Of a stretch of DNA of 64,000 bases, positions 17,501 to 62,900 are shown one piece after another. The position numbers and the translations under genes were made by a program. The DNA is taken from NCBI RefSeq assembly GCF_964355755.1, contig NC_092671.1, forward strand, positions 34,358,304-34,422,303. Reading direction: 5' to 3'. The notes beneath the pieces were generated by a model. The model had not been told where the DNA came from. It worked only from the letters and a program-made list of their open reading frames with translations, and searched no databases. Each line of letters begins with the position of its first letter. The stretch's first letter is position 1. The stretch is from Antedon mediterranea. Its lineage: Eukaryota; Animalia; Echinodermata.

Positions 17501-17642
17501 GAAAAGTCCTACTATGTGTGTAATGCATGGATGGTCTGAGAAAGGTTTGTCATTGGATGATTTTAATAAATGTATGATTGAGATGAATCGTCATGATGTT
17601 GTACGTTTAATTGAGGAACATCTTTCAGGTAAAGAAGAATGA
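8559..17642 (+). CDS. ROCO-family GTPase 1 (ROC-COR-death domain), 3' 14 exons; 5' part outside window
   Basis: Phase-consistent exons: 8559-8650, 8757-8853, 9268-9365, 9899-9944, 10210-10430, 10906-11007, 11325-11513, 11626-11883, 12324-12530, 12816-12977, 13121-13432, 13801-13866, 16507-16726, 17281-17642. Motifs IWDFAGQDLYYITHQ, PIFIVGTHRE, P-KW, LHFHHDLGNIVYY, YVPSLL, FLPEGLYYRL. C-terminal death domain LDP...NDWRGVA...SPT..V...W...MNRHDVV.LIEE. Confidence 0.9.
14011..16474. mobile_element. Non-autonomous Kolobok element in ROCO-1 intron
   Basis: Perfect 16-bp TIR AGATGTATTGTCCCCC / GGGGGACAATACATCT flanked by TTAA at 14007-14010 and 16475-16478. Confidence 0.85.
16122..16147. mobile_element. 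P-superfamily-like excision footprint (26-bp inverted repeat)
   Basis: CATGGAGTAAA...TTTACTCCATG flanked by the 7-bp direct repeat GGGAAAC. Confidence 0.7.
17000..17165 (-). mobile_element. LINE (CR1/L2-group) 3' tail remnant
   Basis: On the minus strand, a stem-loop-like GAGGACCCCAATGGAAATAAG...TTCTTGGGTTATTCCTC precedes AATAAA and a (CTAAA)n tail. Confidence 0.45.
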
Positions 17643-29527: not shown

Positions 29528-29811
29528 GCCGATTTTCCACTAGGCGAATTTGTTCGCGCGAATCGAACGCGCCAGCTTGTACGCATGTGTATTCATGTTT
29601 ACGTCTTCCAAATCCTTCTCTACGCATGCGTATTAGCTGACGCCTTCGATTCGCGCGAACAAATTCGCCCAGTGGAAAATCGGCTTAAGCCGATTTTCCA
29701 CTGGGCGAATTTGTTCGCGCGAATCGAAGGCGTCAGCTAATACGCATGCGTAGAGAAGGATTTGGAAGACGTAAACATGAATACACATGCGTACAAGCTG
29801 GCGCGTTCGAT
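29528..29811. mobile_element. Two inverted copies of a ~160-bp MITE forming a palindrome
   Basis: GCCGATTTTCCACT..GCGAATTTGTTCGCGCGAATCGAA TIRs with TTAA flanks. The second, inverted copy starts at 29689 and is cut at about 29811. Confidence 0.8.
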
Positions 29812-37068: not shown

Positions 37069-40000
37069 TTATTGTATATTATCACTTTCAACTCCATCAG
37101 AGGAACTAGCAATACTTTCAAAATCAGATTCATTCTCTGAATTACTTGTGTCAGAAAGCAGGGATTCTTCACTGCTGGAAGAATATAAGTCTGAATAGAA
37201 TGATTTATTTAATTCAGTCAAGTAGAAAGATGGAAGCATTGGTAAATCTATGTATTCCCTGAACAAATTTGAAAATTGAATAAGATTGTCTTCAATCTTC
37301 ATTAATTCGTTGGTGACTTGGGCAATCTTTCCACAAGATCCTGTTGTTTTAAGTAGTTTTACTTTGATGTCTAGGGCTTCGTGCTTCGCTATACAATGGT
37401 CAATGACCGACTGCATTTCAATCTTTACTAGGGTTATCTCCTCTTCTGCCCTGCTCTTTAAATCATTATTAGTTAAGATTTGTCTCTTCTTATTGAATGA
37501 TATACTGCATAGCTAAATTTTAAAATTCAAATAAAATATAGTAAAGTATAATATAACTAGAAATTACAAATGGATTCTTATTATTACTATTAATTATATA
37601 AAGTAAAATGTGATTTTAATTTTAAAATATTTGGTGTTTACTGTACATAACCATAACCGGTAGTTTATTCTAATTAAGTGATTATTGTTAAACAGTATTT
37701 CAACCTCATATTTACCTCAGATGCTGTTGCATTGTTGTAAAACATTCCATTAGGATCTTTAATATATGCAAATACGACACTTTGTTTACTACAAGCATTA
37801 TACTTGGAAAGTAGGCCCCTTAAGTTTTTGCTTGCACGGTTTACTTGTTTACAAAGTCTGTTTGCCACAGCTTGACCATCTAAATTGTAAAACAAAATTG
37901 TATTTTAATTGTAATACTCATTTTCACCTATATTGTGTAATCTAAATAATAACCCACTGCTCAATCAATAATCAACAAATTCCTTTAAATTTAACTATCT
38001 GAGGTTAAAAAGTAAAATGTTATTTTGGATATTGCACGGTAGTAGAAAAAAAGTAAAGGACCAAAGAAATTATAGGTCAATTAGTACACTTTTCCAACAT
38101 AATCAGCTGACAAATTGGATTTGAGTATAATAAAGTATGTTTGTGTATTATTTCAGTTTTTACCACAATATTTCTTCTTCACAGATAACAAAAACATCCG
38201 TTCTTGTGCGCATGCCTTCATTTTTCCTTTGATGTTTTCGATTTTCTTATTTGACATGGATATTTCAGCAGCTTTGAATTCCATCCCATCACTCTTCCAT
38301 CTCTTCCTTACATTATTCTCCTTCTCCATAGAAGAGACTGCATCCTCCATGCTGAAAGTATAAATTGTAGAGATAATTGAATGATCTTTACTTTTTTATG
38401 TGTCAAACACACTCAATATAATAAACAATACAACATACCTTTTGTATACATCTTGAAATTCTGAATCGGTAGTTGTCATACTTTGCCTAAACAAGAAAAA
38501 TAATTTATTTTGTCTAATTAATTTGGCAACATTTCCAAGATAATTCGAAAATTAAAATAATGTTCCAATCAACTTTTATGCACACACTCACAAACACACA
38601 CTCTTTAAAAAAACTCTTTGACTACTAAAGACTAGGCAATTTTGTGGATTATGCATGAAATACATACTGTACGTTAAAAACAACTTAAAAAAGCATACCT
38701 GAGCTGGGAAAGACTTTTCAGTTTAGATACATATTTTTCTTTCCAATTAGCTGAAAAGATTAACAATTATATATTATACAAACATAATATAATACCTTTA
38801 TTTCTGTTTAGAAACAAATTTAATATTTTTTTTGGTAAAAAACATACAGTACATAAGAGCAATTAAAAAGATTACAATAACATATCCTATATTTAAAGTC
38901 ATACCCTTATCTATCTGGACATTTGAACTCAATGCCATCTTTTCATCCTCCTTCCATTGCTCAATTACTTCAGGTGTAACATCTGTTGAAAACAATATGT
39001 ACACTGTTATGACCATGAAGTAGTCATGTATTTAATTTAGTATTTCATATTAATAAAACAAATAATAATTTCACTAAATAAGTTTTTACCTGTGGCTACA
39101 CTTCCTTTTTGTAAATTCAGCTCCTTTACTGCTTCATTTAACACATTAGATGCCTTTTTAAATTTCTTTAGTAACATGTTACCTGTGTTTGATCAAAAGA
39201 ATCAATAATAAATTAATGCAAAATGTTTTAACATTCTTATGAATTCTTATGAATGTAGAAGTAATATAGTATACATACCAATATTTTGTCGTTTCCGGCC
39301 AGAATAATGTAACAATGCATCCGTCAGCAAGTCAACTCTGTGTGATGGTGCCATTTCCTTGGTAATTTTTGAAAAATTCCGCAGGTATGACCAAAGACGT
39401 TCGATTCCCTCCCCATCAGTAAGACCAAAACCATTCAAACGTCGAGGGTTGTATAATACCTACGTTATAAGAAATTTCTGTTAAAAAATATTTTGTTTTT
39501 TTCTTGTGTTATTGTGTTAATAGATTGGTTGATTTACCTGACATGAACTTTTATGACCATAGCAATGGAAAATAGGTATTGCCATATCAACATTTCTTAA
39601 AAGTTGATCTTGCTTCTTCTGTAAAATGAAAACATACAAATATATTATATACATAGCAATTTTAACAAGGTCAGAGTTATTTAACAAAAATTAGTATAAA
39701 TTGTAAAAATACATGCCCAACTACTATGATCAGAAGATTTGAGTATATCCTGTTGTCTACTTTAAAATTTCATATATTATAATTACATTAACAACAATCA
39801 ATATAAAAAACAACTGACCTTAAGGTGTGATGATAAAACACATGCAATATCATAAGTCAAAAGCAGCCTTTGGTCCTTCACACATGCTTCATTGTACAGC
39901 TTTTGTAGTAGGAGCATCGGGTAGCCAAGTCTAAATAGAAGAAAGTTGTTTAAAATGTAAAGTAACTGAGAAAAGATATATTGAAAATTCTTAATGATTA

Positions 40001-42542
40001 CTTTTAGTAATTTCAGTAGCACTAGGTAGAGCAACACAATTGTATTTCTAAGAGAAAAAAAATATATTAAATATAGTCCAAAACTAATAGTGGTAAAAAA
40101 TAAAATACTTATTTACATTATATTCGCAGCCACAGTCTGCCCAAAATGTATTGCGTTGTACAATCTTGCCAAATTTTTTTTTATATTCAAGTTTAAGGCA
40201 AAATAAAGGGTAGCATTGTCGGTTGCTTCTTTTTCCACTATAGATCACCTCATGACGGTGCATAACATAGTGCTGTTTTGTTGCATTCACCGATTTTACT
40301 ATGCTATACTAGGTTTTTAGGTTCCGGCACCCGGACAAATTTTAGGACAGGTTAAAATTTTGTTCTCTGCATTAATACATGGCTACCATGGCAACTGGGA
40401 ACATAGTGTAAACATAGCATGAGATTTAAACACACCTTTCTCCATACCGCATGTTTATAAATTTGATGGGAAGTTCATGTCGACAAACGCTACCAAAAAC
40501 ACCAGTTACATCCATTTTGGTTTTTTTTGATCTGGATCGAAGGAGGTTAGCAGCTTTAAAATTATTACATTCCTGTACACAAAAGTATAACATGTGATAA
40601 AAAATTGGTTCAGTTATGTATATATCAAGTCAAAGTAGTTATAGCTCTATCTACTGTACCTGTTTTTTTGTATGGTCATTGTAGTTTTCGACAAATTGAT
40701 TGGATTCTTCATCTTCCAAGAAAAATTTTGTTTTGTACCTTGGTGGCTCCAAACTTTTTCCTGCCTTCCTCCTTCTAATAAGACCAAAATTTGCATCCAT
40801 GGAAATAACTTTTGTTCCTTTACCCTAAGAAAAAAATTCTACATGTAATTAAAATCAATTTATTTAAATAAAAGCAATTGAGTTGTAATTTAAACAAAGT
40901 ATTATTAATAAAAGTGCGTACCTTAGGACAAGCATAACACAATGTACCATCATCTATTGCTTCATCTGGCGTAGTAAGTTTGTAATAGGCATGGTGAAAT
41001 TCGAATAGAGTTTCTTTTTTAGCCAAAAGTTTTAATTTGTTGGCCTACCAAATGGAAACAGCAAAAAATAGCAATTAAAATTAATATTATGAACTACTAT
41101 GAATTAATTGTATGAACTTTGAAAATTAGCACAAAAGAACACTTTACCTCAAAATCCTTTAAGTGATTTGTTTGAATAATCGCTTCACAGAAGGATTTAG
41201 ATGAAACATGGCACTCAAGTTTACAGGTTCTCATCAGTTTCAAAAGGTCTAATGAGTAACCCACAGTAATGTTTGTAGATGTTGCTGGCCAAAGGTGGCA
41301 ATGTAAAAAAAAGGTATATTCTGGTTGGCACGAACAAATTTCAATTTGCAATTGATGGCATCGACCTAAAGATTAATAATTATGTAATATTATTATCAAT
41401 AATACAATTTTAAAAGGTTTCATACATTCGACATTAATCAAATATATATGATAGTACAGTAATCACATTTACATAGCAATTTAGAACTGTGTTTTACTAT
41501 ATAACCAATTTGGTTAGAGTAAAACACAATGATATAGAATAGGAAACATTTAATAATAATGATAAATGACATTTACATAGCAATTTAGCACTGTGTTTTA
41601 CTAGTATAACCAATTTGTTTCATACATTCAATATTAGTCAAATATATATGATAGTACAGTAACCAAAATAATCATTTGTGGCATACTGTATTAAAATGAA
41701 AATGTGTACAATACAAATTACCTTTAGCATCAAAAACAGTGACATATTTCAGCAATTTTACACCACAATCAACATGGTTTGAGTATATGGTCTTTATGGT
41801 GTCAGATTCATATCGGACAAATGTACCAACCTAAAATTAGGAAAAAACAAATTGAACATTTTAAGGTTTTTATATTTTGTTTTGTTATTTGCATATAATT
41901 TTTTTGCAAAACTTTACGCTAGTCGTAACTATTTCCACTTAGAAAGTACAAATTATTTAATTTTAATTTGTATTCACATGTATACCCTGCAAAAATAATA
42001 AAATTATTAGTTCATTCCAATTATGCGAAAGTAGATTTATTGTCAGCATTGTTTTTTTTAGTTTCTTTCTGTTTAAATGTAGAAAAAAAAGTGCCACCTA
42101 CTTTCCAAACCTCGGGTACATGCAATATCCTAAATCTGTGGGCTTCTTCAATGCATTTGTTGCAAAAGTATATACAAGGACCACAGTCTAAACATCTGTA
42201 AACCTGTTCCAAAGAAGATTTTTGGCATTGACAGCATTTAGCATTGTGCAGAGGGATCAATGTTTCCAATAGTGCTACATCAATCCCATCTCTAGCATTT
42301 TGCCACGCCTCGATCTCTCTTTGTTTTTCAGCATAATGTTTACTAGGGCCAGTGTTAGTACTAGTAGACGCTTGAGGGTGTTCTTCATCTGTTACTGGTA
42401 AATCTATGGGTACATGTATGCGACATTGTGGTTGTGGAATGTTTGTAGGCCTAGGCCTATTGCCACTAAGGTATACCCTTCTCGAACGAGATCTACTCGT
42501 GGTAGTTCTCACTCTTACAAAAAGCCGTTTTGATTTAACCAT
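37069..42542 (-). CDS. KDZ (Kyakuja-Dileera-Zisupton) transposase with N-terminal CxC cysteine cluster, about 16 exons
   Basis: Exon 1 is 42542-42102 (CCQC...YRCLDCGPCIYFCNKC...H...H). Later motifs: CSC...LWPAT, CYACPK, SMDANF, CNNFKA, TGVFGSVCRHE, NMRYGER, YDIAC, PIFHCYGHKSSCQ, GFGLTDGEGIERLWS. Acidic tail and stop at 37069. No stop seen in the exons I translated (1-10 checked in full). Confidence 0.9.
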
Positions 42543-42769
42543 ACTAGAAAAAAAAAGATTATTATTAGTTAGACCATGTGAGAAATTTTGGGAGAAAGCA
42601 TAGTGGCATGCTGTTAGATTACTATGATGGGTCATTTTAATATCAGGGCAATAGCCAATACACGTCCATGCAACTCTGGAAATCTCGGAAACAAAAACAG
42701 GCCTCTCATCGCCGATCGGTGTGTTTTTCCAGAAAATTTTCTTCACACTATTATTATTATTATGCAAAC

Positions 42770-43640
42770 CTGGTTACCTAGCTCCTAGCTAGGCCTAGAA
42801 CTTTGGTTAGGCCTACCTAGGCCAACATTTTTGCAGGGTGTTTTTTTTTTTGGGTACGAGTCATCAAAATAAAATGTGGGTACGAGTCAGCTAAAATAAA
42901 ATTGAGGTGCTGGTCTAGGGCTAAGCCTAGCTAGGCTAGCTTATTCCCCCCTACTAGGCCTACGTACGAGTTGGAATGGTCGATGATGATGGGCCGGCCG
43001 GGTACACGGGTTGATCTAGCCTGGCCCTAGGCATGGGCCGGAACCTCTAGGCCTAGTTATAGTATATAAAGTAGGGCCTACTACTACTAGCTACTAGGCT
43101 AGGGCGGCTAGGCCTACTAACTAGCTAGCTAGTAGGCCTAGTGCTATAGTAGGCCTAGTAGTAGGCCCTTCTAGTCTAGCTAGTAGGCTAGGCCTGCCTT
43201 TTAGGCCTACTAGCCTAGGCTTGGCCTAGCTAGCTAGGGCCTACATCCTCAGTCTAGCTAGCCTAACTAGTTAGTCTAGGCCTACTACTAGCTAGTAGGG
43301 CCTATAGCCTACCCTACTCTTCTAGGCGCACCTAGCCTAGACCCCTAGCTAGGCCTAGTTAGGCTAACCCTGTGGCCCCTACCCTAGCCTAGCTAGGCCT
43401 AGCTAGGCTAGAGGCCTACCTAGGCCTAGCTAGGCCTACTAGCCTAGCTAGGGCCTAGGCCCTAGTTTAGGTAGTAGACTACTTCTCCCTAACCGAGTGC
43501 TGGCAGTAAAACACTTACTTTGTAGCCTGACTAGCTAGGCCTGCCTTTATAGCGTATCCAAGGCCCTACACGGTGGTGTATGTAGGCTTGTATTGTAGCT
43601 AGTAAGCAGTAGTAGGCCTAGGCCTAGGCCTAGTGTAGAG
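42770..43640. repeat. Low-complexity CTAG/AGGCCT-rich tract upstream of the transposase
   Basis: Dense irregular TAGGCCTA, CTAG and TAGTAG motifs; similar tracts at about 220-360, 14465-14625, 21945-22060 and 29070-29120. Confidence 0.85.
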
Positions 43641-44152: not shown

Positions 44153-44600
44153 TTTTTAGTCGCGTGGACGCGACTCTATAGTTCACTATGTCGGTCGGTC
44201 TCTCGGTCTGTCGGTCTCTCTGTCGGTCCGGTATCACTATGCGTTTTATCGCTTTTCTGTACTTTTTTAACTGTTTTGATGTACAGACAATTAGTCGCGT
44301 GGGTGGACGCGACTCTATAGTTCACTATGTCGGTCGGTCTGTCTGTCTGTCGGTCTGTCTGTCGGTCCGGTATCACTATGCGTTTTATCGCTTTTCTGTA
44401 CTTTTTGAACTGTTTTGATGTAGAGACAATTAGTCGCGTGGGTGGACGCGACTCTATAGTTCACTGTCGGTCGGTCTGTCGGTCTGTCTGTTGGTGCGGT
44501 ATCACTAAGCGTTTTATCGCTTTTCTGTACTTTTTGAACTGTTTTGATGTACAGACAATTAGTCGCGTGGACGCGACTTATGACTGTTGGCCTTGTTTTT
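44153..44600. mobile_element. HINE-like element with three tandem ~135-140 bp head units
   Basis: AGTCGCGTGG(GTGG)ACGCGACT starts at about 44158, 44293, 44432 and 44561, with (GTCY)n between; ends GGCCTTGTTTTT. Confidence 0.75.
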
Positions 44601-44759
44601 ATACAAGGGTATTTTACCCCGACCCTATGCATGAAGTACATTTTCTGAAGGCGTAGACTGGATAAGTATGTGAACTAATATAAAGATTAGATTAAATTAT
44701 TCTTTTCACCTTATACACCCCATGTGAACTGGGTGAACGTTCACGTCCTCGCTCTCTCT

Positions 44760-45135
44760 TTATTTAAGAGGCTTCCAATCAGCCTCTGAATTTAAAAGGC
44801 TTCCAATCAGTTTGGATATAGGTAATACTGAGGCAAGCCTCTCTTTGAATCAATGTACACACATTGTTTTGACAATGAAATTAATCTATATTTGTTTAAA
44901 TGGGCGGGGAGGCGAGGATTATTAATGAACAATCGTGATTTTGTTGTCACCAAACGTTAGAGGGATACACTTACTCAACCGAGGAATGTTTGTTATGGCG
45001 TAAAGGTTTGTTCATTTGCATGTAAACAATACGTAGTCAGATTCATGATATTTCAACGAGGCGAGTATAAATAAATCTTTTCTATATGGTTACAATCGGA
45101 AATTAGTGAAAACACGAAAATAAACAAAGTCAAGG
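44760..45135 (+). promoter_or_regulatory. Candidate ROCO-2 promoter / non-coding first exon
   Basis: Two CCAATCA boxes (about 44775 and 44803), a GC box GGGCGGGG (44902) and a downstream donor AAG|GTACGA (45134). Confidence 0.3.
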
Positions 45136-47936
45136 TACGAAAAAGTTTGTGTAATAAGTCGTATTTAAGTTGTAGGCCTATTCGACATAAGCTTTCATTT
45201 CATTTCATATTATTTTCTCCCTACACTCACTAAGAGACAATCGACCATTACTGTGGGTAAACATCACAGAATCGACTAGAATAAAGTATATACTGTAATT
45301 GACAACTGTGTAGACGAAATGAACCAAAACGGTTGTTATAACTTGTATTTTGTCAATGCTTGATCAACCGATACTACAAGATTAACTCCAATAAAGAATG
45401 AAATTTTATTGGTTTTGTCTGCCTTGTTTATTTCTCGAATGCACTCTCTACATGATACTGCATCCCTCTACTCATCAAATTTGGGTTTGAGTTTGTTTGA
45501 TTTAGTGACTTAATCTTGGTTTTATTCATGTTTGTTATGTCTTTCTGTCAGTCAATTGTCTTGTTAGACTGATCACACAAGGATTAACGTGTCTTATATA
45601 GGCCTAGGTTTTCTGTCTTCTTGCGTGATCAACAAATATATACAGTTTTTTTCTTGGAAAATAAGATTTCAGGTAAGTATTTTATTATCTTCATACCAAA
45701 GTGTATTCAATGATCTTGTTACTTTGCCATTTAATTTTCAAAATTATGCCAATATATTTAAATGTGGTAATTATGAGCATGCGTATTGCTAAAATCAAAA
45801 AATGACAATTGATACTATCCACACGCATTGAGAGAAAAATAGCAAAAGTCAGCCATTAAGATTGGTAAAACGTGACAGTTTCTCTGACTCAAAAGACGAT
45901 TGAAACGACCATTATGTGTAGTGTGCCAAAAAAAAACCACACACATAGTTGTTGTACAGTAACTTTATCAATGCTAAATCACCATGCAATTGAGTACAAT
46001 ATATCAATAGGCAATTGCAACTAGTATTTGAATAAGTTAGGCAATTTGTCATAGAGTTGCATTCATTGTATCTGCCTTCTTGTTCATTTCCAGTGAAATA
46101 TGTACACGCATCTTCGTGTATTTGTTTAATAGGTTCATTGTATAATATTGTTACTGGATTTCTCATGATATTTTTTAAGTGATTTTTCTATAATTATCTG
46201 TTTGCGCGTAGCATTCCTGTACGAGACGTATTTTGTCTTCCTGTTCAATCCTTTATAACTCTCCATACGGTTTGACTTTTTGGATTGATAAAGTTTGTAA
46301 TGGGCAAGTGACCTTTACAGTTACTTTTTCTGGCTGGTCATTATATTATCGTGTTTACTGTTATTTCGATATGCTCTTTATAAATAATAAGACAAGTATG
46401 CTAATAATTATTATGAAAAGGTATTGGGAGTACAATGTTAACACAGGGTTTCTCAACAGTTTTTTTAGTGGGCCCATTGTATTCGTGTGAGCCAGATACA
46501 GCCTAGCGTCATTAGTGCCGTCAAATGGGCCTGCGTTTATGTACAATAACCGCTTTTTCTGTATTTTTTTAAGCTGTAGCTCAATCGTGGGCCGTAACTC
46601 ATGGCATCAAATGTTTACACTGAAAAGAAAAAAGGAAGGTAATAATATTGTGATCAATAATATATCTATTATCTTGATCATGTTATATTTTCTAATAATA
46701 TATATCTAAGGTCTATTATCCTTTATAATTTAAAAATAATTAATTGATATTCAGAAATTGAATTGATTTGGAAATTGTATTATCAGTAATTATAGTTACT
46801 AGAGGGTGAGTGTAGACGATGGTTCTCGGAATGATAATGACTCGGGTAAAAAGGTTTTAAAAGGACTTCTTGTACGTTTTCTGTCGAAAATTATTGTTAT
46901 TGAAATTGCTTGACATTCGTACAACTAAACCTACTCTGTTTCGCAGTGTCTTAGATGATTAATAACATTTTAAAGTATAGTATTATTATTCAAAGTGATT
47001 TTTTATTGGGGACGTTTTGGGCGTTTATTCAAATAAATACCATCCTAATAATTAATACATTATTTAATTTAAACATCTTTTGAAACTAATTTCCGCGACA
47101 GAGTTGGCCGTTTCGAGAAGGAAGACGTTTTAGACGGCTTGCAACATGGGCAGACGTATCCCGGGCCTAACAGGACACAGTTATTCCTGCCAGCTTACTC
47201 AATGAAACTCGGCTATCGTGATTTCACTCGATTTTAAACAAAAGGTCTTATCATCAGATCTTCCTATGTAATTCTATAATACAATATACTCCGATGCTTT
47301 ATATTTAACTTGATCTTTATTAATTTGCAGTATAATTTTTATTTTTTAACTACTGTACCTTCACACGCGCGGTCCGATCCGAAAGTAAACAAAAAACTAA
47401 ATGGCTATAGCTCCTAACGGCCAACTTAGTTGAAACCAGGAAGTTGCAAGATGAACACCCGTGAACGATGAACTCATTGTGAATCCGGAAATTACTTGAA
47501 CCGCGCACAATTGAAGTTGAATTGAAAATCTACGGATGAAATCAGAAATTTGGTTCCATATTTCTTAGGAAGATATTATAAAGGAACAATATCGTAATAG
47601 TGGAAACTAATGTTATCAATTCTACGTTTCGCGGTACATCTGAGATAGATAAGGTAGGTAACCAAGGCGGAGATTTGTCCCGAAGTTTTTTCATTGTGCT
47701 CGCCTATGTCAGAATTAACCATAATTTATATATAGATGACGTATTGTAATACATCCAAACAATGTAAGCAAATGTGTTGCTATCATTTACACAATGTCAA
47801 AATGTTAATTATAAATATAGAATAAGACAAAGAAAAATGAATAAACATTAAAATTTAATTTGATGAATAAAAGAAAAATGATGGTTATTCAGACTTACGT
47901 AAACATGTTAATTAAACTTAATACTTTATTTTACAG

Positions 47937-50900
47937 TGAAATCTTGACAGACGAGACTGAGTTAGAGTAAGTATAAACTTAAACTAAGTTTTCAATTTAA
48001 TAATTAAAATCATGAATTTAAACAATGCATAACTATTCTGGCATTATTTATGTCAACATGTTTAATTAGCCTTAATACTCTTTTTAAAGAACTGACGGAT
48101 ATAAACATAAACATAAACTTATTATGTAAGCACATGGAATTTAATTTTAACACTTCGTAGAACATTTTTAATAGTACACATGAATGGACTTATCAAATAA
48201 AAATTGCATTATAGAAAACTTGTGCTATATTGATTTACATTTCGGTCTTTCAAATAAATGTAATAATTTAAAAAAAGTTAATATATTATTACTTTTTAAA
48301 AACACAACACGTATCGAAGGAGTTAGCTTTAAAAGACAACTTGACCGAGGACCATATTTTTACAACGTATTGGATATACATATGATTACAGAACAATCGC
48401 GAGATTAAGGATATCGTCGCACGCGCTCGCCGTACAGCCGTTTTCACTGTTGTTAACATACAAGATAGATAGGTACCGTCACTTCAATTGCTAATTTGAC
48501 CTGTATTAGCCTTAAATATGCCAAAATGTTTAGTTTTCTTAAGTATTTTGAAGAAACACTTCAATATCCAGATAGGCAAAAGAAACAAGAAAAAAATTCA
48601 ACATTTATATTTTTTACGATTTATTTAGAAAGTGTGTTTACTAGAAATGTTCGCGCTTTGTGAGACTTAAAATATGGTCCTCTGTCAAGTTGTCCTTTAA
48701 TGCCTCGCTTTTGGAAACATAGATAATCCGGTTGAGTATTATAGTATAAACAAGTACTAAGAAGAATTTACATTATTTATATAAGCTTACTAATAAAACC
48801 TTAATAATTTGTTACAGTAAATGGAATAGACAGCTAGAGTAAGTATAAACATAATTATCTGTATATTAATGCCATGCCAAAATGTAAAATGTATTACGTA
48901 ACAGTGGTAAAATACATAACAATTCAATTATTTCACGAGCACAAAGAATAATAAATGTATTACAAAACAATTGGAAAACAATGAAGTATAATGAAATTTT
49001 AATTTAATGGATTTTTATAATATAATTATGGTTAAGACAAAGCATAACAAAATCAAAATTGCATTTCTACACATCAGAAATTGGGTAGTGAATTCCTTAT
49101 ATTTTTAAAAAGCATAACTACATATAGAATGATCAGGTTTTAAATAATAATAGAGCAGTATATTGCAGAATTATTAAGACATTAATATTATGTAAGCTTA
49201 CTATTAAATCTTAATTATTTTACAGAGAACAGAGAAGAAAGAGAGAGTAAGTATAAACATACTATTGCTAATGGTTTGCCATGCTAAAACGTGAAATTGA
49301 TTACGTAAAACTTTAAAATACACTTTACAATGAAATATAATTTATGAAGGGGCTTGTATTAGGACCAAGACAAAGTATAACAAAATAAAGATTTCATTTC
49401 TTACACCTTGTGTATAAGCCAACTGTATAAACTAACTTAATATCTATTTACAAAAACAATATAGTAACCTACTACTTGTAAAATAATAATAAATCAATTG
49501 TTTTCAGCCTAAATGCCTCACTTTCAATCAATCAATAATCAACATTTTTATTCCATATTAAAAAAAAACATATACAAATACAATAACAATGATAATGGAA
49601 TGAGATACAAAATAAGCACAAGTGCATTAAACATGTAACCATACCAAACTAGAACAAACACTAGTACCAAAAAAACCTAACTTAAATATTTTTATTGATA
49701 TAATGTTGCTTCAATCTCTGCTTAAACAAACTTAATGTGGGGGATTGTTTTATATAATATGTTACATTCCAAATATGTGTTCTTGATAAGATATACATTG
49801 TTTTAGTTGTGGACAATAGTTTGACCTGTTTCTATATTTGAGTAATTATGGAATGCCGGGCCAAATCAGTGATTAAATGATGCTGTTAATAGATTATTGT
49901 TATATCTGTGCATCAATATAGCAGCATGGTTGCTAATAAATATTAGAGCAGATAATTTAAACAACTATTTGTCAACATACTATTGAATTTTTTATTTATT
50001 TTTTTTACAGAGAAGTGAGACAGGAAAAGTAAGTAGAATATTGCTTTACTATCCAATAACATGACCATATAGAATAATCAGGTTTTTTATAATAATACAG
50101 CAGAACATTTTGTGGAGAATTATTAAGACATTAAAATTTATGTAAGCTTACTATTAAATCTTAATTATTTTACAGAGAACAGAGAAGAAAGAAAGAGAAA
50201 GAATAAACATACTATTGCTAATGGTTTGCCATGCTAATATGTAATATGTGTTATGCAACATTTTAAATTACAAGTAGTATAATGAAATATAATTGTCATT
50301 TACTGTAGTAAATTGTATCTTTAAAATAATTTTCAATTTATTTTTGTTCTAAGTTCATGACATATTTTTAAATCATAATAAAGTCAAGGTTTAGTTTAAA
50401 TGCACCATATAAGAAAAAAATATAATAACAGGTAAAGTTTAAAAAAATTAAGACAATTTATAATTATGTATGTTTAATATAACGTAATGAATATGAATAC
50501 TTGTTTATCTTATAGAAAATGGGAAAGACTACGAGAGTAAGTATATTTACACGATATAGTAATTTACCATGTGAAATGTGAAATTTGTTACGAAACACTA
50601 ATGACATTGATTATGTAGAAGACATTACAAGTATATATGTTTTACTATTAAGACATTAGGTTTAAATAAATCACTAACAAAACTTAATATTTTTTGACAG
50701 AGAAACAAGTAGACTGTTAAAGTAAGTATATATATTATTTTTAATCTTTTGTCTTTAGACTTTGTGGCCAAGGATTGCCAATAGTAAATTAATCACTGTC
50801 CTATCAGATAGTTGGTAATCCCCCTGATGCAGGGCTATTTTGTGAACCAGTTCACCGAGGTAACCCCATTCTCTTCTCGAAAATGAAGTGGGTTCTAATT

Positions 50901-53900
50901 GGTAAAAATAATAGGTAAGACATAATTTTTTTAATGCAAAAATCATATAATACGTATAGTAAAATGAATACAATGTAAATGAAAATTTTATAATTTAGTT
51001 AGACACCAGGTGAAAATGCATACACTTAATGGAGAAAGAGTAATTAATGGGAGACACCAACTAAAGAGAAAACAATCGTAGTAGTAGTAGTTCAAAACAA
51101 AAGAAACACACTTTTCCACTTTATTTTTAATAGGGTGAAGTTTTGGTCAGTGACTGATGAACTTTCAAGTGAAATTAAAGTGAATGATTTTCAGATGCTG
51201 AAGATCGCCCTATATGACATAATCAACAACAAAAAGGAATTAAAAGCAGCGTCAGCTAATAGTTTGTTCAGACTATTACATTCAGAGGGTTACGTTGAAA
51301 TTAGTTGGTTTGTGGAAGTTGATTGTGATCTGCTATTTGAATTATTTGAGTTAACAGGACTTCAAAGACTATCTCAAATATTATCCAAGAACTATCGTAA
51401 GCAGAAGCAGACAAATATAATCACAGGCTACAGACGAATGCTAGTTAAACTTGGCAAATCATTAAATACTCAACAAGTTGAAATCCTTGCGAAGCTCTGC
51501 AATATTAGAAAAGTTGATTCAAAAAATGCGTGGAATTTAATTAGCAGATTGACTCAAGGCAAAATTGAAGACACTATAGAATCGTTGACAGCATTTGAAG
51601 CTCTTTTGAAAGACAAACAAGATTTGAATCATGTACTTACTATTGTAAAATCATTTGGTAAGTATATCTTTTTTAGCAGCATCGTTCTATTTCAATCAGA
51701 ATATCTTACTCTGGGCCAACTTTTAAACGCAAAATGTTCTGGTTTTTTTTATGAATGTTTTTAATATAAAAAAAACTGAAACAGTCATGATATCATAAAT
51801 GGAAATTTACACAATTCATTTCTAACCTGGCTCTAGTCTTACAATACAATTACAATTGTAATATTTGTTTTGATTTTAGAAAAATACTATAATACGCCTA
51901 ATAATATTTTTTTTTTCAGTGCAACAGAAAAAACTGAATGATGGTAAGAATAGTAGCTAAGCAGTAAATGTAATATTCAATATTGATCTAATGAGAATAG
52001 TGTCTGATAAGTTTGTTATATTTTGTAAATCGTTTATTTCGAATTAAAAATTATTTATTTGTACACCATGTTCCTTGACTGCATGTTATATTCTCCTTCA
52101 CTAAAAGTCATCTTATTCTAATATCATACATGTACTGCATATCTAAAAAATCCGAAACCACACACATGTAATTCCTAACCAAGTAGTGCATGTGTATTTA
52201 CATAATGTATGTCTTTTAAACATAATAATAGTTCCTCTTGAGGTGTTGGCTAGAGGGCAGGAGGCTAATGATGCATTTCTTGATGCCATACAAGAAGGAA
52301 GTAAATCTATATACCAAACACGTCTAATGCTTGTAGGACAAGAGCGTGTTGGTAAAACCAGTTTAACCAAAGCACTCACTGGTCAACCGTAAGTAGGCCA
52401 AAATTCATTAAATTCAGAACAACAAGAACAATAGTTACATTAACAATTATTTTTAATTAATTATAGATTTATTTTAAAACAGAGCCTGCGTATTTAAGAA
52501 CAATAGTTACATTAACAATTATTTTTAATTGATTATAGATTTATTTTAAAACAGATATGTTTCTTAAAATAATACATTGAAGGTTCATAGGAACACCTAA
52601 GAAATTGGGCAAAGATCATTAACGCTTGATGCATGACCAACCTTCGGGACTAGTACAATGGTAGCAATCTTCCATGTTTTGGCAAATATTTCCTTTACGT
52701 AACGCAGTGTCTCTTAGTAAAATGAGAAGCTAATTCAGTGTAAATTGATTTTTAGTTTATGTTACTCAGTTCATCATTCGTAACAAGTGGTACATATAAG
52801 TGTTGACTTCATTATAAAAATTAAATGATTTAAGTAATAACAATCCATCTGATTACACAAAATTAAAAGCTTGTATAAAGGTCACGGAGTTAGACCTAAT
52901 AGGCCAAATATGTTAACAGCGTGTCCTTTTCCTACACTGTATTGTTTAAATATTTTGAATGACTTTTGTATTGCTTGAAATAATATGTTAAAAGTTTGTG
53001 TCATAAAATGTGTTTAAGTTGTGATATGTAGTAGAATGTGTTTCAGATATAATACCACTTGTAACATTTATTTAGATTTGATGCTACTGAGGAAGTGACT
53101 GACGGAATTGAAGCATCATTGTCATGCACAATTAGTGTTAAGCATACTACTAACTGGAAACCAAGTCAAATTAAAGGTATAGTACATTCACATTCAGAAA
53201 TAAATATCTTAAATTAAAAATTGAAATTCCAAATAAGAAGTACGGATATGAATAGCCTCATTCATCCAAGCAGTATTAATTTTAGAAAGATATCAATCTA
53301 ATCATTCAACCTAAGTCGTGAAACACTGTTTACTAAACAAGTAAGTGTAGTGGATTAAGGAAGTTTCAAAGGGTAGGCCTAATCATTACTGTAGGTAAAC
53401 AATATCTGTATTTATTTTTTTATTTAAAAACATATTTATAGATACTAATATGGTCCTGTTCGTATAATGAAAATAAAATAGAAAATGAAAATTATAAAAA
53501 TGATTCTTCTATTCAACTATACTGTACAACTATAATAGAAAGTTGTATTGTGTTTCAAACCATTGCACCTAAAACACTAAGTGAACTATTCATGAGCATT
53601 CATTTAAGGAGGATTAATGTTGAGATTTTTCTAAAAGATCCATGTCAAAAACCATTTCAATGTTATTACTTACATGTATATATTTTGTCCATTTTAACAC
53701 GCTATAGCATAACCTCTGAGTTTTTTTTATAATTTGTTTAAAAATGTGCAGCTTCTGTAACCTCAGTAGTTTCTCAAAACATAATACAGAATTGGGTTGT
53801 ACGTTTATAGAGTAAATTTAAAAACGTTTTACTGAGTGTATCAGCTAATTTTGTATTTAATTGGCGTATATTAATGAGCATTCCAGTTTCACGGATTTGA

Positions 53901-56900
53901 ATTCCTTAACTACTTGATTCATGTCACATGGGCATTCAGAGATACAGAAGAGCGTAAAGTAACTAGGTAACCATTCATAATGACAATGTATGCAAAGATT
54001 TGCATTGCTTATATTCGCAGCAAAGAATGAAGTACGACAAGAATATATAAGAGCTCTTGCAGAAAAAATCATAACTGACATTTTGAAGGATAAACGAGAG
54101 GATCAACATGAGGTTAGAACAATGTGATTACGATTATTAAATGTAAACAATGCTTGTATCATTATGTTATCTGTTGTATTTATGCTAATTATTGTTAAAA
54201 TATGCCATTGTTTGCAATATTATACAGAAGTTAATGCACCATGGAAATGCAAAACAAGAAAATAAAGAAGTTGGCAGTGTTGCTGAGCCAGAGGAAGATA
54301 ATCCAATAACGTATTTAACTTCCTCACATGAAGGTATGAAAACTCGATTAATACAATACCATGTTTTAAAGTCCATCTGGTTACATATATTGAAGAACAA
54401 AGAAATAACAAAATTTACGATGGTTGGCAGCAACACATAAAACTGTTGGTAGGTAGAATTGCAATACGGATTTTGAATTTTATCCTTACTGGGAGTCCTT
54501 ATTATTAATACTCTGTCTTGTAGTACTTGATTTTATTCTGGTAGGAATGTATTTACATTATTATTGCATGTTGTTGTTGCTGCTGCTGTTTGTTTTTTTT
54601 TTTTGCTGTTTTTTGTTATTGTTTTCTTTGGCGTTGTCACTAACCAATTGTAAAGAGTTATAACTATTTTTCCAAATATTATTTCTCATTTCTCATACGA
54701 TATTTATTAAATATTAATTTACAAATAAATTGTATCAATAGTTAATAATTTGTGCAGACATTAAACACATCCATACATAACATTTAAATTTCTATTAGAG
54801 AGCACAAGTAAAACATTGAAAGAAAGAGTGGTAAGAGCAGTTAGAGAAACATTCAGAACGATTTTGACAATGAAAAGAAAGAAGGGAGAACAACATCAGG
54901 TCTGTATGCCTTCATTTTTAGTCGCGTGCAACGCGACTCTACAGCTCAATATGTCGGTCGGTTGGTCGGTCGGTCGGTTGGTCGGTCGACACTAACTTGT
55001 ATATGGCCTTGTCTTGATATCAGTTTCATCTAGCTAAGTCAATATATTACTTATGGCCAGGACTCGATGTGGTTATGTTTTTCACGATGCGCAATCAAAA
55101 ATTACGCGGTCTACGCACGATTTAATGAAATCACGTTTGTAATCATATCTTCACAAACATGAATCACAATTAAATAAAAGTTGGTACTCATAAATTTCAG
55201 ATCATATTTCATTATCATCATAATTATGACAATACAATTACGTGCGTAGCGCATATAACGCACGCGTACGCGCGCTTAAAATTTTTCAAAATTGTCAAAT
55301 TTATTTTCGATAAAATTAGAGTACGTTTCAGGCAATTTTAAGCGTTTAAAACATTGCAATGAGTGCGCAGATTTTTGCACTCGCACTGCACGTAAAACGT
55401 TAATACGCACTCTTTTTCCCTATTTGATTCACTTTCAAACTAGAAATTACGTTATACGAGCACGTCAAAGTGACAGGCTACGCACGTGTAAATTAAAAAA
55501 ATATAAATGTTTTTAAACATTTTCCACATTTTTAAACATGTTTAGCAATTTCGGTCGGCCGATTGGTTGGTCGGTCGGTCGGTGAACACTAACATGAGCA
55601 CGCAACTACAGCCATGTATATGGCCTTGTTTATTAACAGTTTCAGTTTATTTAAACATTATATAAACAAGTTGAACTTTCGATTAACCAATTGAGTACTT
55701 GATAATTAGTTTATCGAAAGTTAAAATGGTTTATACAATATTATTTTGAAACCAGATGAAATTTTTCGAGAATTTAAAAATTGTTCAGATTAAGGGTTTA
55801 GACAGAACAAATACTTTAAAAAATGTAATAAAAATTAAATTGTTTTGTATCAGTTTTAGGTGTCAACTTGCACCTAAAAACATTGCTGCTTGAAACAGCT
55901 TAGCCTTCAAATTCCACATCATGTCAATGCAACATTATATATTATTATATACTGTTTTATTAATCAGGGTATATACTAATGCATACTTTAAACATTATTA
56001 TTTCATTTTGTAACAGGTTATTTTGCTTATTTTGTCATCTTTGCCTTTTTTACTTGTACTGTATATTACTATATTGATTTTTGTTATACAGAAATCAAGA
56101 GAAATTGTAAGAACTAGATGGCACGCTCGCTTCGCTCGCGTACCATCTAGGTCGTGCCCACAGATGGTTCTCGAATACACAGTATTTCCAGCGAGAAAAA
56201 AATGGAGATTTCAAATGTACGTACCGCAGGACTATAATACATTGTCGTTTACAGAAACGAATAAATATACACAATGATTTATGTAGTCAACCAAAATTAG
56301 CACCCTGGGAATTACTTCCGAGAGAGAAACAAAATGAGTCAAATTTTTTTATTTGGACTCATTTAAACAAACCCAATTTGTGTTTTGTATGTAACATTAA
56401 GGGTTGAGGGATGGGGGAAGAAGATAGGTACAAAGAGGAAACATTTTAAAATATATTCTTATCCACTCAGTAACGAAATATTGTTTTTAATGTTTTATAG
56501 GCCTATAAATAATATACCACTAAATACAGTAAAACATTTACGATTTAATACGGTACTTTGTTAAAACTCTCACTGTCATAGTCGATTGAAATAGTAAAGT
56601 ACATGTAACGATACACCACTACGACGTTTATATATTTTTAAATTATTAATTAATACAAACGTTGAGAAGCAACTGTCAGTAATAACGTTTATTTATTTGT
56701 ATATTATATGTTTATAATCTAACAGTAGGGCCTACCCACACTCACAGTAATAAAGTTTATTTGTATATATTTTTATATTACATCTAACAGTACCAACACT
56801 CACAGTAAGAAATTTGCGATTTAAATTGGGATCAAAAGTGGTTAATACCTTAACAGTATTGTACAGCATTGCAATACTATTTATGTTTATTCTCCAAGGG

Positions 56901-59900
56901 GGCCCATAAATCTAAATCTATACCTCTATGGTTAAACCAAATAATTTGGAATGTTTATTTGTATATTATATGCTTATAATCTAACAGTAGGGCCTACCCA
57001 CACTCACAGTAATAAAGTTTATTTGTATATATTTTTATATTACATCTAACAGTACCAACACTCACAGTAAGAAATTTGCGATTCAAATTGCGATCAAAAG
57101 TGGTTAATACCTTAACAGTATTGTACAGCATTGCAATACTATTTATGTTTATTCTCCAAGGGGCCCATAAATCTAAATCTATACCTGTATGGTTAAACCA
57201 AATAATTTGGAATGTTCCATTCATCACAAATCAATACATTTGTAAAAACGTATATTAAATGTATCAAAATAGTATTTTTTAAAGAAAATCGGCCTGTCTT
57301 CAACATTATGATGCTGTACTCGAACTGTTCAACCGGTTTTCAGCTATTAAAAACAATTATCGTAGGAGGAGATAGGAAAATGCGAAGCCTCCTCGCATTT
57401 TTGTGGCGGGTATTTTTCAAGATGGACATCCATTAGACAGTGTATACCACGATCGGAAAACACCCCTATTTGGGGCAAATCGTTGAACCTAAATTCGTTT
57501 TAATCGTCAATAACTAATTATCTAACTTAATTTAATTAGTAAACAGGGTTACATCAGGTGGTTAAAATCAGTACCGAAAGTACGAACCAACTTTATATAC
57601 CATCGAGTAAAAATTCTAGAAGTAAGGCGCGATTTACCGAATTTTGCCCTTACGTAAATTTATATATAGAAGAAACAGGAAGATGATAAATTTGGTAAGG
57701 TGTAATGGAATGTGCAATGTATGGCTTCATTAAGTTGTTGCTTTTTGTATTTTCTATATCTTGATTTTGGTTACAAAAAAAAGGAATAGTAAAAAATAGG
57801 TATGATTTATTGGAATTATACATTACGACTAGATGGCACACGAGAGAAGCGAGGGTACCCATAGATGGTACACGAGAGAAGCGAGCGTACCCACAGATGG
57901 TACACGAGAGAAGCGAGCGTACCCACAGATGGTTTTTTATATTTAAACTCCTGTAAACAAACCCAATTTGTGTTTTTGTATGTAACATTAGGGTTGAGGG
58001 ATGGGGAAGAGGACGTTTACAAAGAAGAAAAATGTTTAAATATATTCTTTATCCACACTCAGTAACGAAATATTGTTTTCATGTTTTATAGGCCTATAAG
58101 TAATATACCACTAAATACAGTAAAACATTTGCGCTTTAATACTTTGTTAAAACTGTCACTATCATAGTCGATTGAAAAGTACATGTAACGATGCACCACT
58201 TCGACGTTTATATTTTTTGTAATAATTAATTAATACAAACGTTCAGAAGCAACTGTAAGTAATACAGTTTATTTGTATATCATGCGTCTATAATCTAATA
58301 GTGTATACCATGATCGGAAAACAGCCCTATTTGGGGCAACCCGTTGAACCTAAATTCGTTTTAATTGTCAATAACGAATTATCTAACTCAATTTAATTAG
58401 TAAACAGGGTTACATCAGGTGGTTAAAATCAGTACCGAAAGTATGAGCCAACTTTATATACCATCGAGTAAACATTCTGGAAGTAAGGAGCGATTTACCG
58501 AATATTTCCCTTACGTAAATTTAACTCGTTGAATATAATATTATATCAAGTGTATACATATCAGTAAAACGTTCATGTCGGCAAGTTATAGGTAAAATAA
58601 TATGGGCGTTTAGTTTATACGATAGTGAAAGACATTCCGTTTCGAAAATGCTGTATTTATTTATTCTTTACATTAAACAGCACTTGGTGCATCTTCACAA
58701 ATGACGCATGATACTCAAGAAGATGTTACTGAACTGGTTGTAGACATGCTTGAAGAAAAGAGAAGATCTGCAGAAAAAAACGTGTTGAAAGAGAGTAAAG
58801 ATTTACAGGAGACAATTGATGATCTGACTCTGAGCATTTGGGATTTTGCTGGACAAGATCTTTATTACATTACTCATCAGGTACTATAGTAATAGACCAT
58901 TTTAATATGTGTTCTTCACATTATTAGACATAATTTTAGATCTAGTTGACAAGAGATAACCATTCTTATATTACAATACAGAACTAAAAAACAAACAATA
59001 TAAATGTAAAGGTTGATATCTATACTATCGTGTATATAACTTATAATATGTAAACAATAATAAGTATTGTCTGGTCTGGCAATTTAAACATAACAGAATA
59101 TAAAAACTAAAGGTCGTCGTATACTATGGCTGATTAGCCTAAAGTCGATAATTGACTCAACTTTTTTTTAAATGACACAAATTTATAAAAAATATATCAT
59201 TAATTTTTTATTTATATTCACAGTTAATTACAATTTTGGTCGGTCGACAAATTCTACTTTTTTAATCAATATCAATATAAATTTTGAAATTATATAACTA
59301 TATTGGCAGAAAAATCAGATATATCAATTAAACAGAAATAAGAGAATTAAATTTAAAATGGTATGGGTTTTTTTTAATTTGATTGTTTATATGTTTATAA
59401 TCAAAATAATATGATATGCCTCAGATTATGTGTAATTAATATATTTATTCATTTTATAATTTCTTGGTTTTGATAGATGTTTCTGGTATCTCGTGCTATT
59501 TACATCATCTGTTTCAACCTCTGTCATGACCTCAATGCACCATCAAGAGTAAATGTATTTCACAGAGATTATGGAAAAGTAAGTAAGATAATCTAAACAA
59601 TAATTTGAATAATGATTTGATTTTTATAAATTCATTTTTAGTTGTCTATTTAGTTTTTGGGAGTAATCTGTGCCACGATGGTAATGTTGAGTTCAACTAT
59701 GCCTTTCACGACATCTTCAGCACACACAACATATTTAAATTAATCTATGCAAACAAAAACTTAACTGAAAGTTACATATTTGACCTAGATTACATTTTCA
59801 ACAACTTAATTTAATTTAATTATATGTAGTGATATTAATTAGTTTATCGAGTTGTAATTAACATACCGTAAGTACCATACCGTAACATATATTTACTGTA

Positions 59901-62900
59901 TCTAAGGAAGACATGTATTATATTATTTTTATGAATTAGTTTAAACCATAGACAAGTGTATTATTTGTTATTCTAATATTTTTGTGTATTTTTTAAACTT
60001 GTTTAGATTTCAGATGCCGACCACTACATGACTAACTTGGACCGTGTAGTTTTCTGGTCACATTCAATCTACTCACATAATACCACTGCCAGTACCACAA
60101 CAAATGCAGTGTTAAACCAGAAACAGTGTTCACCACCTATATTCATTGTGGGCACTCACAGAGAAAGTCTTCCTGGCAACAAGGAAGAGAGACATGCTAT
60201 AGTGAGTATGATTTATCAATTTAATACCCAGTCAAAGAAATATTTTTTTAATATGTATTACTATCAAATTATATAGTTATTTTTTTTTAAAGTAGACATT
60301 CATATTATTTTTTGTAGACTGAAGAAAGGTTTTCAGTAATAAGGAAAGCATTTAAGGGAAAACCATATGAACGCCACTTTGTGTTCAAGTACTATGCCAT
60401 TGATAACAGTGTCAGGTCACCATTGGATAAGTCTATTGTTGAGCTTAGAGATCACATCACAGAGGTAGCTAAGAATGAACCGTATATGGGCGAGAAGATG
60501 CCATTGAAGTGGTTACATTTCTTGCATGAAATTGAAAAATTACGTGCACAGAATGAACACTCAGTTACCTTCAAACAGGCATGTATACTACCTCTGTATA
60601 TCATATCATTCAAATGAAAGATGCATTAACATGTAGAAGAGGAACAACACATTTGGAATTTTCGATTATAAATACAAAATGCTTTTTTCATCAAAACAAA
60701 CATTAAATAAAAGAATGGTAAATTCAGCACAAAATATATGTCAATTACAGTATATGTGAGTTACATATATTATGTATGCCGCATACATTAATACAAAATC
60801 AAAGTCAGAATAGAGAAAGAAAAGACCTACAGTAGGTATACCATTTAGGATTGTTGCCAACAATAAAACAATTTAGCTTTTTCAGTTCATTTAATATAAC
60901 TATTGTAAAGCTTTTTTGTGTCCAGGTGTGATTATTTTTGTATTTTTCTTTCATTTTTCTACTTATTGTTCATATTTATATATTACTTATCAATTTTTTT
61001 TATCTTATACTTTTGTTTCTGTAGGCACCAATTCTCATAATTTGTGTTATGATTTGTTTGTATTTCATTCTATTGACCCTTTTTTCAAATGTCAGGTAAC
61101 CAAACTAGCTTCCAAGTGTCATATCACTAAACAGGATCAATTGTTTGCTATGTTGCATTTTCATCATGACCTTGGAAACATTGTTTACTACGGAGAACGA
61201 GACACACCAGATTGCGCCCTCAATGACATTATCATTATAATACCGCAATGGTTGATTTTCATTTTCAAACTAGTTATCACAGTTAAAGATCCTTCAAAAC
61301 AAGTATGAAATTTAGTTCAATTTTTTTTTTTCTGTGTTTCAAGTACAGATATTGGTGTGTTGTTTCAGTGCAACATGCATTTGATCATATGTTTTTAGCG
61401 TGGTAGTATTTCATTAGTTAACAATTAAAAATAACTATTTCAAACTAATTGTCAGCATTTTTTGCAGTTAATAGATATATATTTACAGACCATGCCTATT
61501 GATTTAAAAAAAAAATTGTATTTATATTTTATCAATATCTTGTTATCTTTATTTTCAATATGGTTCAAAATATTAAATAGGACGACCACTGTTATTTTAC
61601 CAAGTATTTCCCTCAGAAACTGAGCACTTAAGTGTATTTTTTTAGTATGCAGAGCTTAGAAGCTCTTGGAGAAAACTTGACGAAGAGGGTCTCCTGGAAG
61701 AAAGATTACTTAGACGTATATGGGAAGAATTTCTTGAGATATTCGAAGCATTGTTAGAGCTGATGCAGAAATTTGACTTACTATGTGTCAAGACTCCATC
61801 TACTCAGGTAAAGACAGGTTGATAGCAGTTAGTATCAAATTGTTTTTTCCGGTTGTTTCTGTATCAATTTACATAATTGTTTGAAATCGCCCAACCAGTA
61901 TCTGTGCAATATTGTAAACCTTTCGTTAGTCTCCTCATAGTTAATTTTAACAACAATTAATTTTATTATTTGAAATTGTTACAAAAGATAACAAGTATTG
62001 AAGGCAATCGTCTCTTTTATGTGCCATCACTGCTGAAGAAGGATGAAGGTGACGAAATGGTATCACTTGATAAACTGACAAAGTCAAAGAATACTGCGGT
62101 ATTTTACGTTGACTTTGATGGTTTCCTACCTGAAGGACTGTACTATCGACTCGTAGTGAGAATCGTGCATTGGTCACAACAGAGGTCACATGATGAGAGA
62201 TATGATCCTAGACTCTTTTACCAGCAGGTGAAGGTATACATTGATCTAAATCATGATGCAATCATCAGGATCCTACCTGAAAGAAGATCTTGTATTCAGG
62301 TAGGCTAGGAGTGTTTGCAGCCAGTGTATTACAAGTATGCCCTTAAAATCCTAAAGGTCAAATTTTCCATACTTAGTCCAAGAATTATCTTTCCATAATC
62401 ATGACATTTGTTTGATAAAACAACTTTCATTCTGAGGCACAAGTTCTCATATAAGTTAAAGTGTTAAACATGAAAAAAGAAAATTAATAAAACAGACTTT
62501 AAATACCTCTTGTTTTAATCAAGTTAATCACTTTCATAGAAATTAAAAAACACCAGAAAATTAATGTTTCAGTTATAAAAAGATACATTAAACGGTTAAA
62601 TCAAACCAAAAACCCACTGTCTGGCAGCCAATTTGACTATTTGTTGTTTTAAACTACAGTTAAAATAATTTGTTTTAGGGCCAATTTTTTGACAAAATGA
62701 AAAAATATTACATGTCATTAAAATGGCTTATTCAACAACAAAAATTAAACACAATTTTCAGGGAACAATTTTTTATTATTATTATTATTTATTTATTTTT
62801 AATTTAAATTGTTAAACAAATCCTGAATATAAAATTGTTATTACAATCAAGTAAATTTGTTTTTATTCTATTACACTGTAGGTGGTTATTTACAGACTTA

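Follow-up and report, generated by a model that had tools for sequence, protein, structure and literature searches.

Tandemly copied, likely coding heptad micro-exons that may add a charged helix to the death-effector domains of a crinoid ROCO GTPase

Ahead of the tandem death-effector-domain (DED) exon of a ROCO gene of the crinoid Antedon mediterranea lies an array of six micro-exons which, in the reading that we prefer and to which we give a probability of roughly 55%, are coding, stem from tandem copying of a short exon together with its flanks, and add a charged helix of up to ~44 residues that continues helix 1 of the first DED (DED1) of a Roc-COR GTPase. The gene, here called ROCO-2, was analyzed within a window of 64,000 nucleotides (the whole stretch of DNA considered; positions 34,358,304 to 34,422,303 of contig NC_092671.1, assembly GCF_964355755.1), in which all positions below are counted. 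On this reading the locus captures exon birth and death in the course of growing a protein helix, with old, young and dead copies lying within 3 kb of each other.

The array had been picked out in a first-pass annotation made from the DNA letters alone, and the coordinates given there for the six live units and for a seventh, dead copy proved to be exact. They are as follows (P0002 and P0003 are the RefSeq protein models of ROCO-2 and of a 98%-identical duplicate, respectively):

47937-47966 (+): micro-exon 1, 30 nt, phase 2-2
48818-48838 (+): micro-exon 2, 21 nt, phase 2-2
49226-49246 (+): micro-exon 3, 21 nt; its homologue is used in P0003
50011-50028 (+): micro-exon 4, 18 nt; its homologue is used in P0003
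50176-50196 (+): dead duplicate of micro-exon 3 (seventh copy), acceptor intact, donor altered at +2 and +6
50516-50536 (+): micro-exon 5, 21 nt; its donor is used in P0002, and the unit is missing from P0003
50701-50721 (+): micro-exon 6, 21 nt; used in both P0002 and P0003

As annotated, the live units measure 30, 21, 21, 18, 21 and 21 nt (132 nt altogether), are all in phase 2 and carry TAG or CAG acceptors and GTAAGT donors; both departures from 21 nt (18 and 30) are multiples of three. They are followed, in order, by introns of 851, 387, 764, 487, 164 and 412 nt, and a YTRAY branch-point-like motif is found within 30 nt of the acceptor in five of the seven units. The exons of the array are 77% purine and 37% GC, the introns 53% and 25%. 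Units with such splice sites number six in the region 47800-50800, compared to a maximum of one in 2000 second-order Markov simulations. Joined to each other and to the DED exon (51134-51657), the six units leave a single frame open, as had been claimed, with five stops in each of the other two, and the frame stays open in all 63 ordered subsets of the six; a stop-free frame arose by chance in 4-7% of within-exon base shuffles (P 0.04-0.07). Among the four joints listed for 48710-51400 in contigs assembled from sequencing runs, none deletes a whole unit. Run X5, guessed to be a source of RNA, was dropped, its coverage of repeats and introns being that of the DNA runs and no splice joints appearing among those listed for it.

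Comparison of the units with each other supports their origin by tandem copying of a short exon plus its flanks, accompanied by birth and death of units. The seventh copy is indeed the duplicate of micro-exon 3 that it was said to be: the two are identical in 20 of 21 nucleotides and in 82-92% of the flanks, and the copy has kept its acceptor and lost its donor, with T>A changes at both +2 and +6. The dead donor is read from the assembly, contigs of the sequencing runs breaking off at 50179-50212. Homology of the flanking introns, which had been claimed for the array at large, is clear beyond the splice signals only among the units at 48818, 49226, 50176 and 50516; it is weak for the unit at 50701 and not significant for those at 47937 and 50011. 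Between the old live units identity amounts to 9-10 of 10 positions in the splice signals, 71-85% in the flanks and 12-15 of 21 positions in the exons, figures that rest on small numbers, the flank values being inflated by gapped alignment of AT-rich sequence. In the 21-mers, differences are fewer at third codon positions (13/42) than at first positions (23/42), unlike what selection on residues would produce; what selection appears to keep is the splice sites, the multiple-of-three length and the charge rather than the exact residues.

Downstream of the array, the gene continues with the following features:

51134-51657 (+): tandem death-effector-domain exon, entered in phase 2
51920-51943 (+): micro-exon of 24 nt in phase 1, located between the DED and Roc exons; four of the five RefSeq loci, all but P0003, contain the peptide it encodes
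52232-63870 (+): Roc-COR exons of ROCO-2, with an open frame up to the window end
56107-57669 (+; region 56092-57694): insertion of ~1.55 kb that splits a coding exon and whose removal as a new GT-AG intron would keep the frame

The DED exon matches the A. mediterranea RefSeq protein XP_071941111 (P0002) at 100%, and ROCO-2 has four related RefSeq loci in the same species. Pfam assigns to P0002, whose exons map to the window, a Roc domain (57.2 bits, cut-off 27) and a COR-A domain (55.9 bits, cut-off 35.3), and by this order, a Roc followed by a COR, ROCO-2 is a ROCO GTPase; the architecture consists of a tandem DED, Roc and COR, plus a Death domain in full-length paralogues. The DED exon in the window scores 21.7 bits, under the Pfam cut-off of 35.9. 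A profile search launched from the tandem DED recovered proteins above the Pfam cut-off for DED, a Foldseek search with the model of a paralogue placed the tandem DEDs of caspase-8, cFLIP and MC159 in its top ranks (best E 0.014, probability 1.0), and the Atlas clusters nearest to the ROCO-2 DED are DED as well, such that the tandem DED is likely a divergent member of the family. The matches to caspase-8, cFLIP and MC159 stand at 13-19% identity, with none at E <= 0.001, and the ROCO-2 module differs from these proteins in being fused to Roc-COR-(Death) and preceded by a predicted helical lead. From the domain architecture alone, we infer an immune or cell-death role for ROCO-2.

Counting from the DED exon, 953 codons (at least 2,859 nt) stay open until the window ends, provided that a GC donor at 60579 is used and the 1.55-kb insertion is bypassed. 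The GC donor (60579, +, CAG/GCATGT, with GTAAGT at the equivalent position of ROCO-1) is spliced in P0002, whereas P0003 reads on into a stop. The exon split by the insertion is whole in P0003, and a GTAAGA just ahead of the insertion together with an AG at its far end would permit its removal in frame at the cost of two codons; intron gain from inserted sequence is a possible account of region 56092-57694. At this exon RefSeq uses a cryptic donor and skips the exon, and it ends ROCO-2 early, without the Death domain, by reading through the donor at 62951. The exon after that donor (63663-63870) is intact, and the Death-domain exon would lie past the window. ROCO-2 is therefore best described as worn, yet not evidently dead.

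That the six units are coding micro-exons is likely. P0002 joins micro-exon 5 to micro-exon 6 and the latter to the DED exon, taking its start from the intron at 50487, and P0003 joins the homologues of micro-exons 3, 4 and 6 to the DED, omitting micro-exon 5; micro-exons 1 and 2 are used by no RefSeq model. Since P0002, P0003 and apparently P0006 begin in intron-like sequence, these models are at least partly computational. In contigs of sequencing run X1, position 49116 reads G instead of A and position 50012 reads A instead of G, as P0003 requires (the latter change yields the Lys found in P0003), indicating that the duplicate locus includes the array. X1 differs from the window at 51204 in seven of seven contigs and is probably not the haplotype of the assembly. 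In a more distant paralogue, ~68% identical over the DED and represented by P0005 and P0007 (its isoforms X2 and X1, respectively), two 7-residue blocks precede the DED exon in the same register as the ROCO-2 units. Both obey the rule E/K-x-x-R-x-x-E/K/D drawn from these units, with shuffle P values of 4e-4 over the last 14 residues and 7.5e-5 over the 23-residue lead, a rule derived post hoc from four ROCO-2 units and read here against exon boundaries deduced from the paralogue's protein only. NCBI generally lists alternative isoforms only where there is transcript support. A charged lead (at least seven E/K/R in the last 14 residues) is present in four of the five subfamily loci, compared to none of 34 more distant tandem-DED hits.

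The leads of the models are 3-28 residues long, compared to up to 44 in the ROCO-2 array, and most models look 5'-incomplete; overall, the RefSeq models of the crinoid DED-ROCO subfamily appear to miss their true N-termini. The first-pass annotation had proposed a comparison with ROCO-1, which could be made in part, from the protein model P0004 only, and gave a lead of three residues. Judging by the protein models, the paralogues appear to differ in lead length chiefly by having gained and lost units in the genome. Homologue searches returned five A. mediterranea loci only, and none of the proteins found is transcript-derived and carries the full array.

The peptide encoded by the six units comprises 44 residues, of which 26 (59%) are charged and 24 are E, K or R, with a net charge of 0. 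Opposite charges exceed like charges at spacing i+3 (11 vs 6) and equal them at i+4 (8 vs 8). AlphaFold renders the lead of P0005 as a single helix (residues 3-37) that runs into DED helix 1 (pLDDT blocks 67-94) and the lead of P0003 likewise as a single helix (residues 2-41, pLDDT 79-91) in a model whose mean pLDDT is poor overall (56.8), both predictions being of these paralogue leads and not of the full six-unit peptide. AlphaFold often renders charged tails as helices. By its composition the peptide looks like a single alpha-helix rather than a coiled coil, with mixed salt-bridge spacing. The original proposal of a coding, charged N-terminal helix with about one heptad per exon gains support from the RefSeq junctions, the in-register heptads of the paralogue and the AlphaFold helices.

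As to where translation starts, the first pass had reported no in-frame upstream ATG exon, a statement that we correct here: there are three in-frame candidates, at 46601, 47863-47905 and 50883. The features concerned are listed below:

45560-45672 (+): candidate non-coding upstream exon with a CAG/GTAAGT donor of 12.7 bits, the top donor score; the position 45560 is arbitrary
~46574-46638 (+): candidate start-codon exon with ATG 46601, which keeps the frame of the array by way of a phase-2 donor at 46639
50750-50881 (+): high-copy interspersed repeat in the last intron; 100-104 contigs have other letters at 50777/50812
50883-50914 (+): alternative in-frame ATG exon with a phase-2 GTAAGA donor at 50915 (8.6 bits), which would bypass the array

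The candidate exon at 46574-46638 has an acceptor of 7.8 bits (third of the 100 AG sites in 45720-47940) and a donor of 6.7 bits, and a frame begun at 46601 reads through the entire array, but by chance 23 of 72 comparable upstream donors have such an ATG. What we take to be a hAT-like end lies nearby, at 46444. The likeness of this candidate to the start of P0005 was too short to count. The ATGs at 47863-47905 belong to the unspliced frame ahead of micro-exon 1 and lie in sequence resembling intron ends, and an acceptor at 47893 was rejected (-1.0 bits, with sequence like the intron ends of other units). Into the 50883-50914 exon there is no usable in-frame acceptor from the array, those at 50759, 50833 and 50851 yielding stops or frameshifts. 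The ATG at 50883 adjoins the edge of the repeat (whose loose ends are 50750-50763 and 50867-50881), other copies of which differ there, and the exon is possibly a repeat-derived alternative start. The upstream exon at 45560-45672 has no ATG after its last stop in any frame, and splicing of its donor at 45673 straight to micro-exon 1 would turn the array into 5' UTR with two short out-of-frame uORFs. A motif scan of 44600-45672 revealed two CCAAT boxes and one GC box at 44775-44907 (+), a putative promoter of ROCO-2. Translation starting inside the DED exon, the outcome singled out in advance as fatal to a coding array, fits poorly with the gene, as the first in-frame ATG of that exon falls after helix 1 and P0005 lacks that Met; an upstream start would thus be required.

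These start sites bear on the reading that the array is a relic, the units having been coding in an ancestor and ROCO-2 now starting downstream (at 50883 or at the DED Met) or using only the last units, with most of the array left untranslated or unspliced. Such a fate would suit a locus in which one unit is already dead and the gene itself shows wear (the GC donor, the split exon and the truncated RefSeq model), in which an in-frame stop precedes the best-scoring upstream donor (45673), whose direct splicing leads to uORFs, and in which an in-frame ATG is followed by a phase-2 donor of 8.6 bits at 50915. However, that ATG borders on a high-copy repeat whose other copies differ there, the RefSeq models bypass its exon, and an in-frame candidate ATG exon is available at 46601. 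The splice signals argue in the same direction: a full GTAAGT, a YAG and an uninterrupted frame persist in all six live units, whereas the donor of the dead copy is gone at a flank identity of 82-92% to its parent. We consider a relic unlikely.

Splicing and pairing offer two further accounts. The first-pass annotation had suggested that the length of the helix is varied by splicing, with cassette units skipped in combinations so that one gene yields many lead lengths and thereby tunes signaling. The frame survives in 63 of 63 subsets, the residues of the exons diverge fast, and the LRR exons of brown-algal ROCO genes are reported to be alternatively spliced (in the accessible part of PMC11378527). 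P0003 omits micro-exon 5, yet this unit is spanned by an X1 contig, assigned to that locus solely by its depth, which is similar to that of the contigs with P0003-type letters, and no change is listed for the exon or the splice sites. Nevertheless, X1 is probably not the haplotype of the assembly, P0003 skips many exons elsewhere and may be computational, and the donors are uniformly strong, as expected for constitutive micro-exons. The only isoform pair seen (P0005 and P0007) differs by two residues in a Roc insert and not in the lead. Altogether we regard regulated skipping as distinctly unlikely. The third account likens the units to the tails of chicken BG proteins, with heptad exons that pair two chains in a coiled-coil dimer and so pre-organize the DEDs; four of the six live units are 21 nt long, Trp, Leu and Val recur at unit positions 2, 5 and 6, and BG genes also have some 18-nt exons (according to the accessible part of PMC5938342). 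Yet if heptad, as used in the first pass, is taken to mean a coiled coil, the sequence gives it no support: hydrophobic residues fill 7 of 15 a/d positions in the best register, DED residues included, and 2-6 in the others, and no regular seam results. Micro-exon 3 lacks any hydrophobic residue, the register is thrown off by the 18-nt unit with its six residues, and charged residues make up 26 of 44, all of which makes a dimerizing coiled coil highly improbable.

Under the preferred reading, that of coding micro-exons extending DED1 helix 1, a short phase 2-2 exon would have been copied in tandem together with its flanks, and units would be free to come and go without a frameshift because every one of them is phase 2-2. 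Each 7-residue unit would add ~1 nm, or two turns by helix geometry, and nearly keep the helical register. The helix would most likely remain monomeric, held by salt bridges, and serve as a spacer or docking arm that extends from DED1; such an arm may set the spacing or the access for DED-DED assembly. A bolder version, in which skipping of heptad micro-exons alters the helix in steps of ~1 nm and tunes the nucleation of DED filaments by a crinoid ROCO immune sensor, with isoforms that vary from cell to cell or upon challenge, strikes us as very doubtful. If splicing does vary the helix, it would represent a new way of tuning death-fold assembly; without splice variation, the array is of modest import, if a neat example of how a gene can be built.

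We compared the array to known systems, as they are described in the accessible parts of the papers cited. Chicken BG genes, which belong to the butyrophilin family, contain 21-nt heptad exons, some of them 18 or 24 nt, at 13-36 per gene (PMC5938342, PMC4046983), and ROCO-2 is like them in belonging to a multigene family, here a putatively immune-related one, with tandem 21-nt split-codon exons and occasional units of other length; unit numbers vary between BG genes and probably do so among the ROCO-2 paralogues. In BG, however, the units form a C-terminal cytoplasmic tail after an Ig-V and a transmembrane domain, are in phase 1 by the paper's split-codon description and place hydrophobic residues at two fixed codons per exon, giving a coiled coil, whereas ROCO-2 has six phase-2 units, without such residues, at the N-terminal end of a soluble protein with DED, Roc and COR domains. 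In P0002 and P0005 the Pfam matches are confined to Roc, COR, Ras and Death, with no Ig-V as in BG. The resemblance is probably convergent, with no homology suggested, and it suggests a separate origin of the heptad-per-exon design of bird BG genes on an intracellular death-domain GTPase of an echinoderm.

Brown-algal LRR-ROCO genes share with ROCO-2 the ROCO family, an N-terminus built of one repeat per phase-2 exon by exon duplication and a candidate immune role, but their units are 72-nt LRR exons that form a binding surface and are reportedly alternatively spliced, in contrast to 18-30 nt and a charged helix before tandem DEDs (PMC11378527); by Pfam, neither P0002 nor P0005 contains an LRR. 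The classic micro-exon genes are the MEGs of Schistosoma (PMC10526429), which likewise have runs of short exons, mostly multiples of three, with longer introns in between; they encode secreted proteins and consist mostly of micro-exons, whereas in ROCO-2 132 nt of micro-exons precede conventional exons that encode intracellular domains over at least 2,859 nt, and a hydrophobic lead is not visible in the five RefSeq loci. By the features tested, ROCO-2 is thus not a BG, a MEG or an LRR-ROCO. Single alpha-helices (SAH), which are often misread as coiled coils (PMC5347031), come close in being rich in E/R/K (24/44 here) with a net charge of zero, no clear hydrophobic seam and a long predicted helix; the ROCO-2 lead departs from them in being short, without enriched i+4 pairing and fused directly to a DED helix, its own helix being a prediction (PMC5347031). 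In the literature searched, which excludes most subscription journals, heptad micro-exons ahead of a DED-ROCO were not found, and the accessible part of PMC8195603 contains nothing on a DED-ROCO. An analogy to troponin T was dropped when the literature search gave it no support.

Several further observations were made on the protein family and on the window. In the more distant tandem-DED hits (n=34), the module is fused to NACHT, caspase, NHL or Roc-COR and is sometimes C-terminal to COR. The 10 named among these 34 are all from crinoids (8 Anneissia japonica, 2 A. mediterranea); we regard the shuffling of tandem DEDs in crinoids as a lineage-specific expansion. The 3' exons of ROCO-1 (XP_071941109, P0004) occupy 8558-17642 (+) and code for a Death domain at the C-terminus; the exons for the DED and the early part of Roc precede the window, behind an intron of >8 kb that contains a large inverted repeat (1901-2771 and 5874-6741, 98.5%). 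A Cys-rich ORF at 42021-42773 (-), presumably akin to CxC/KDZ transposon proteins, has no Pfam match at E 0.1, and likewise an ORF at 37069-37512 (-). The window also holds a perfect palindrome of 250 nt at 29562-29811 and an imperfect one of 1.1 kb at 32374-33491, as well as a second micro-exon array on the minus strand (24987-25489), which consists of four near-identical exon-like units of 30 nt with CAG/GTAAGT splice signals, repeated with a period of ~158 nt and open in a single frame.
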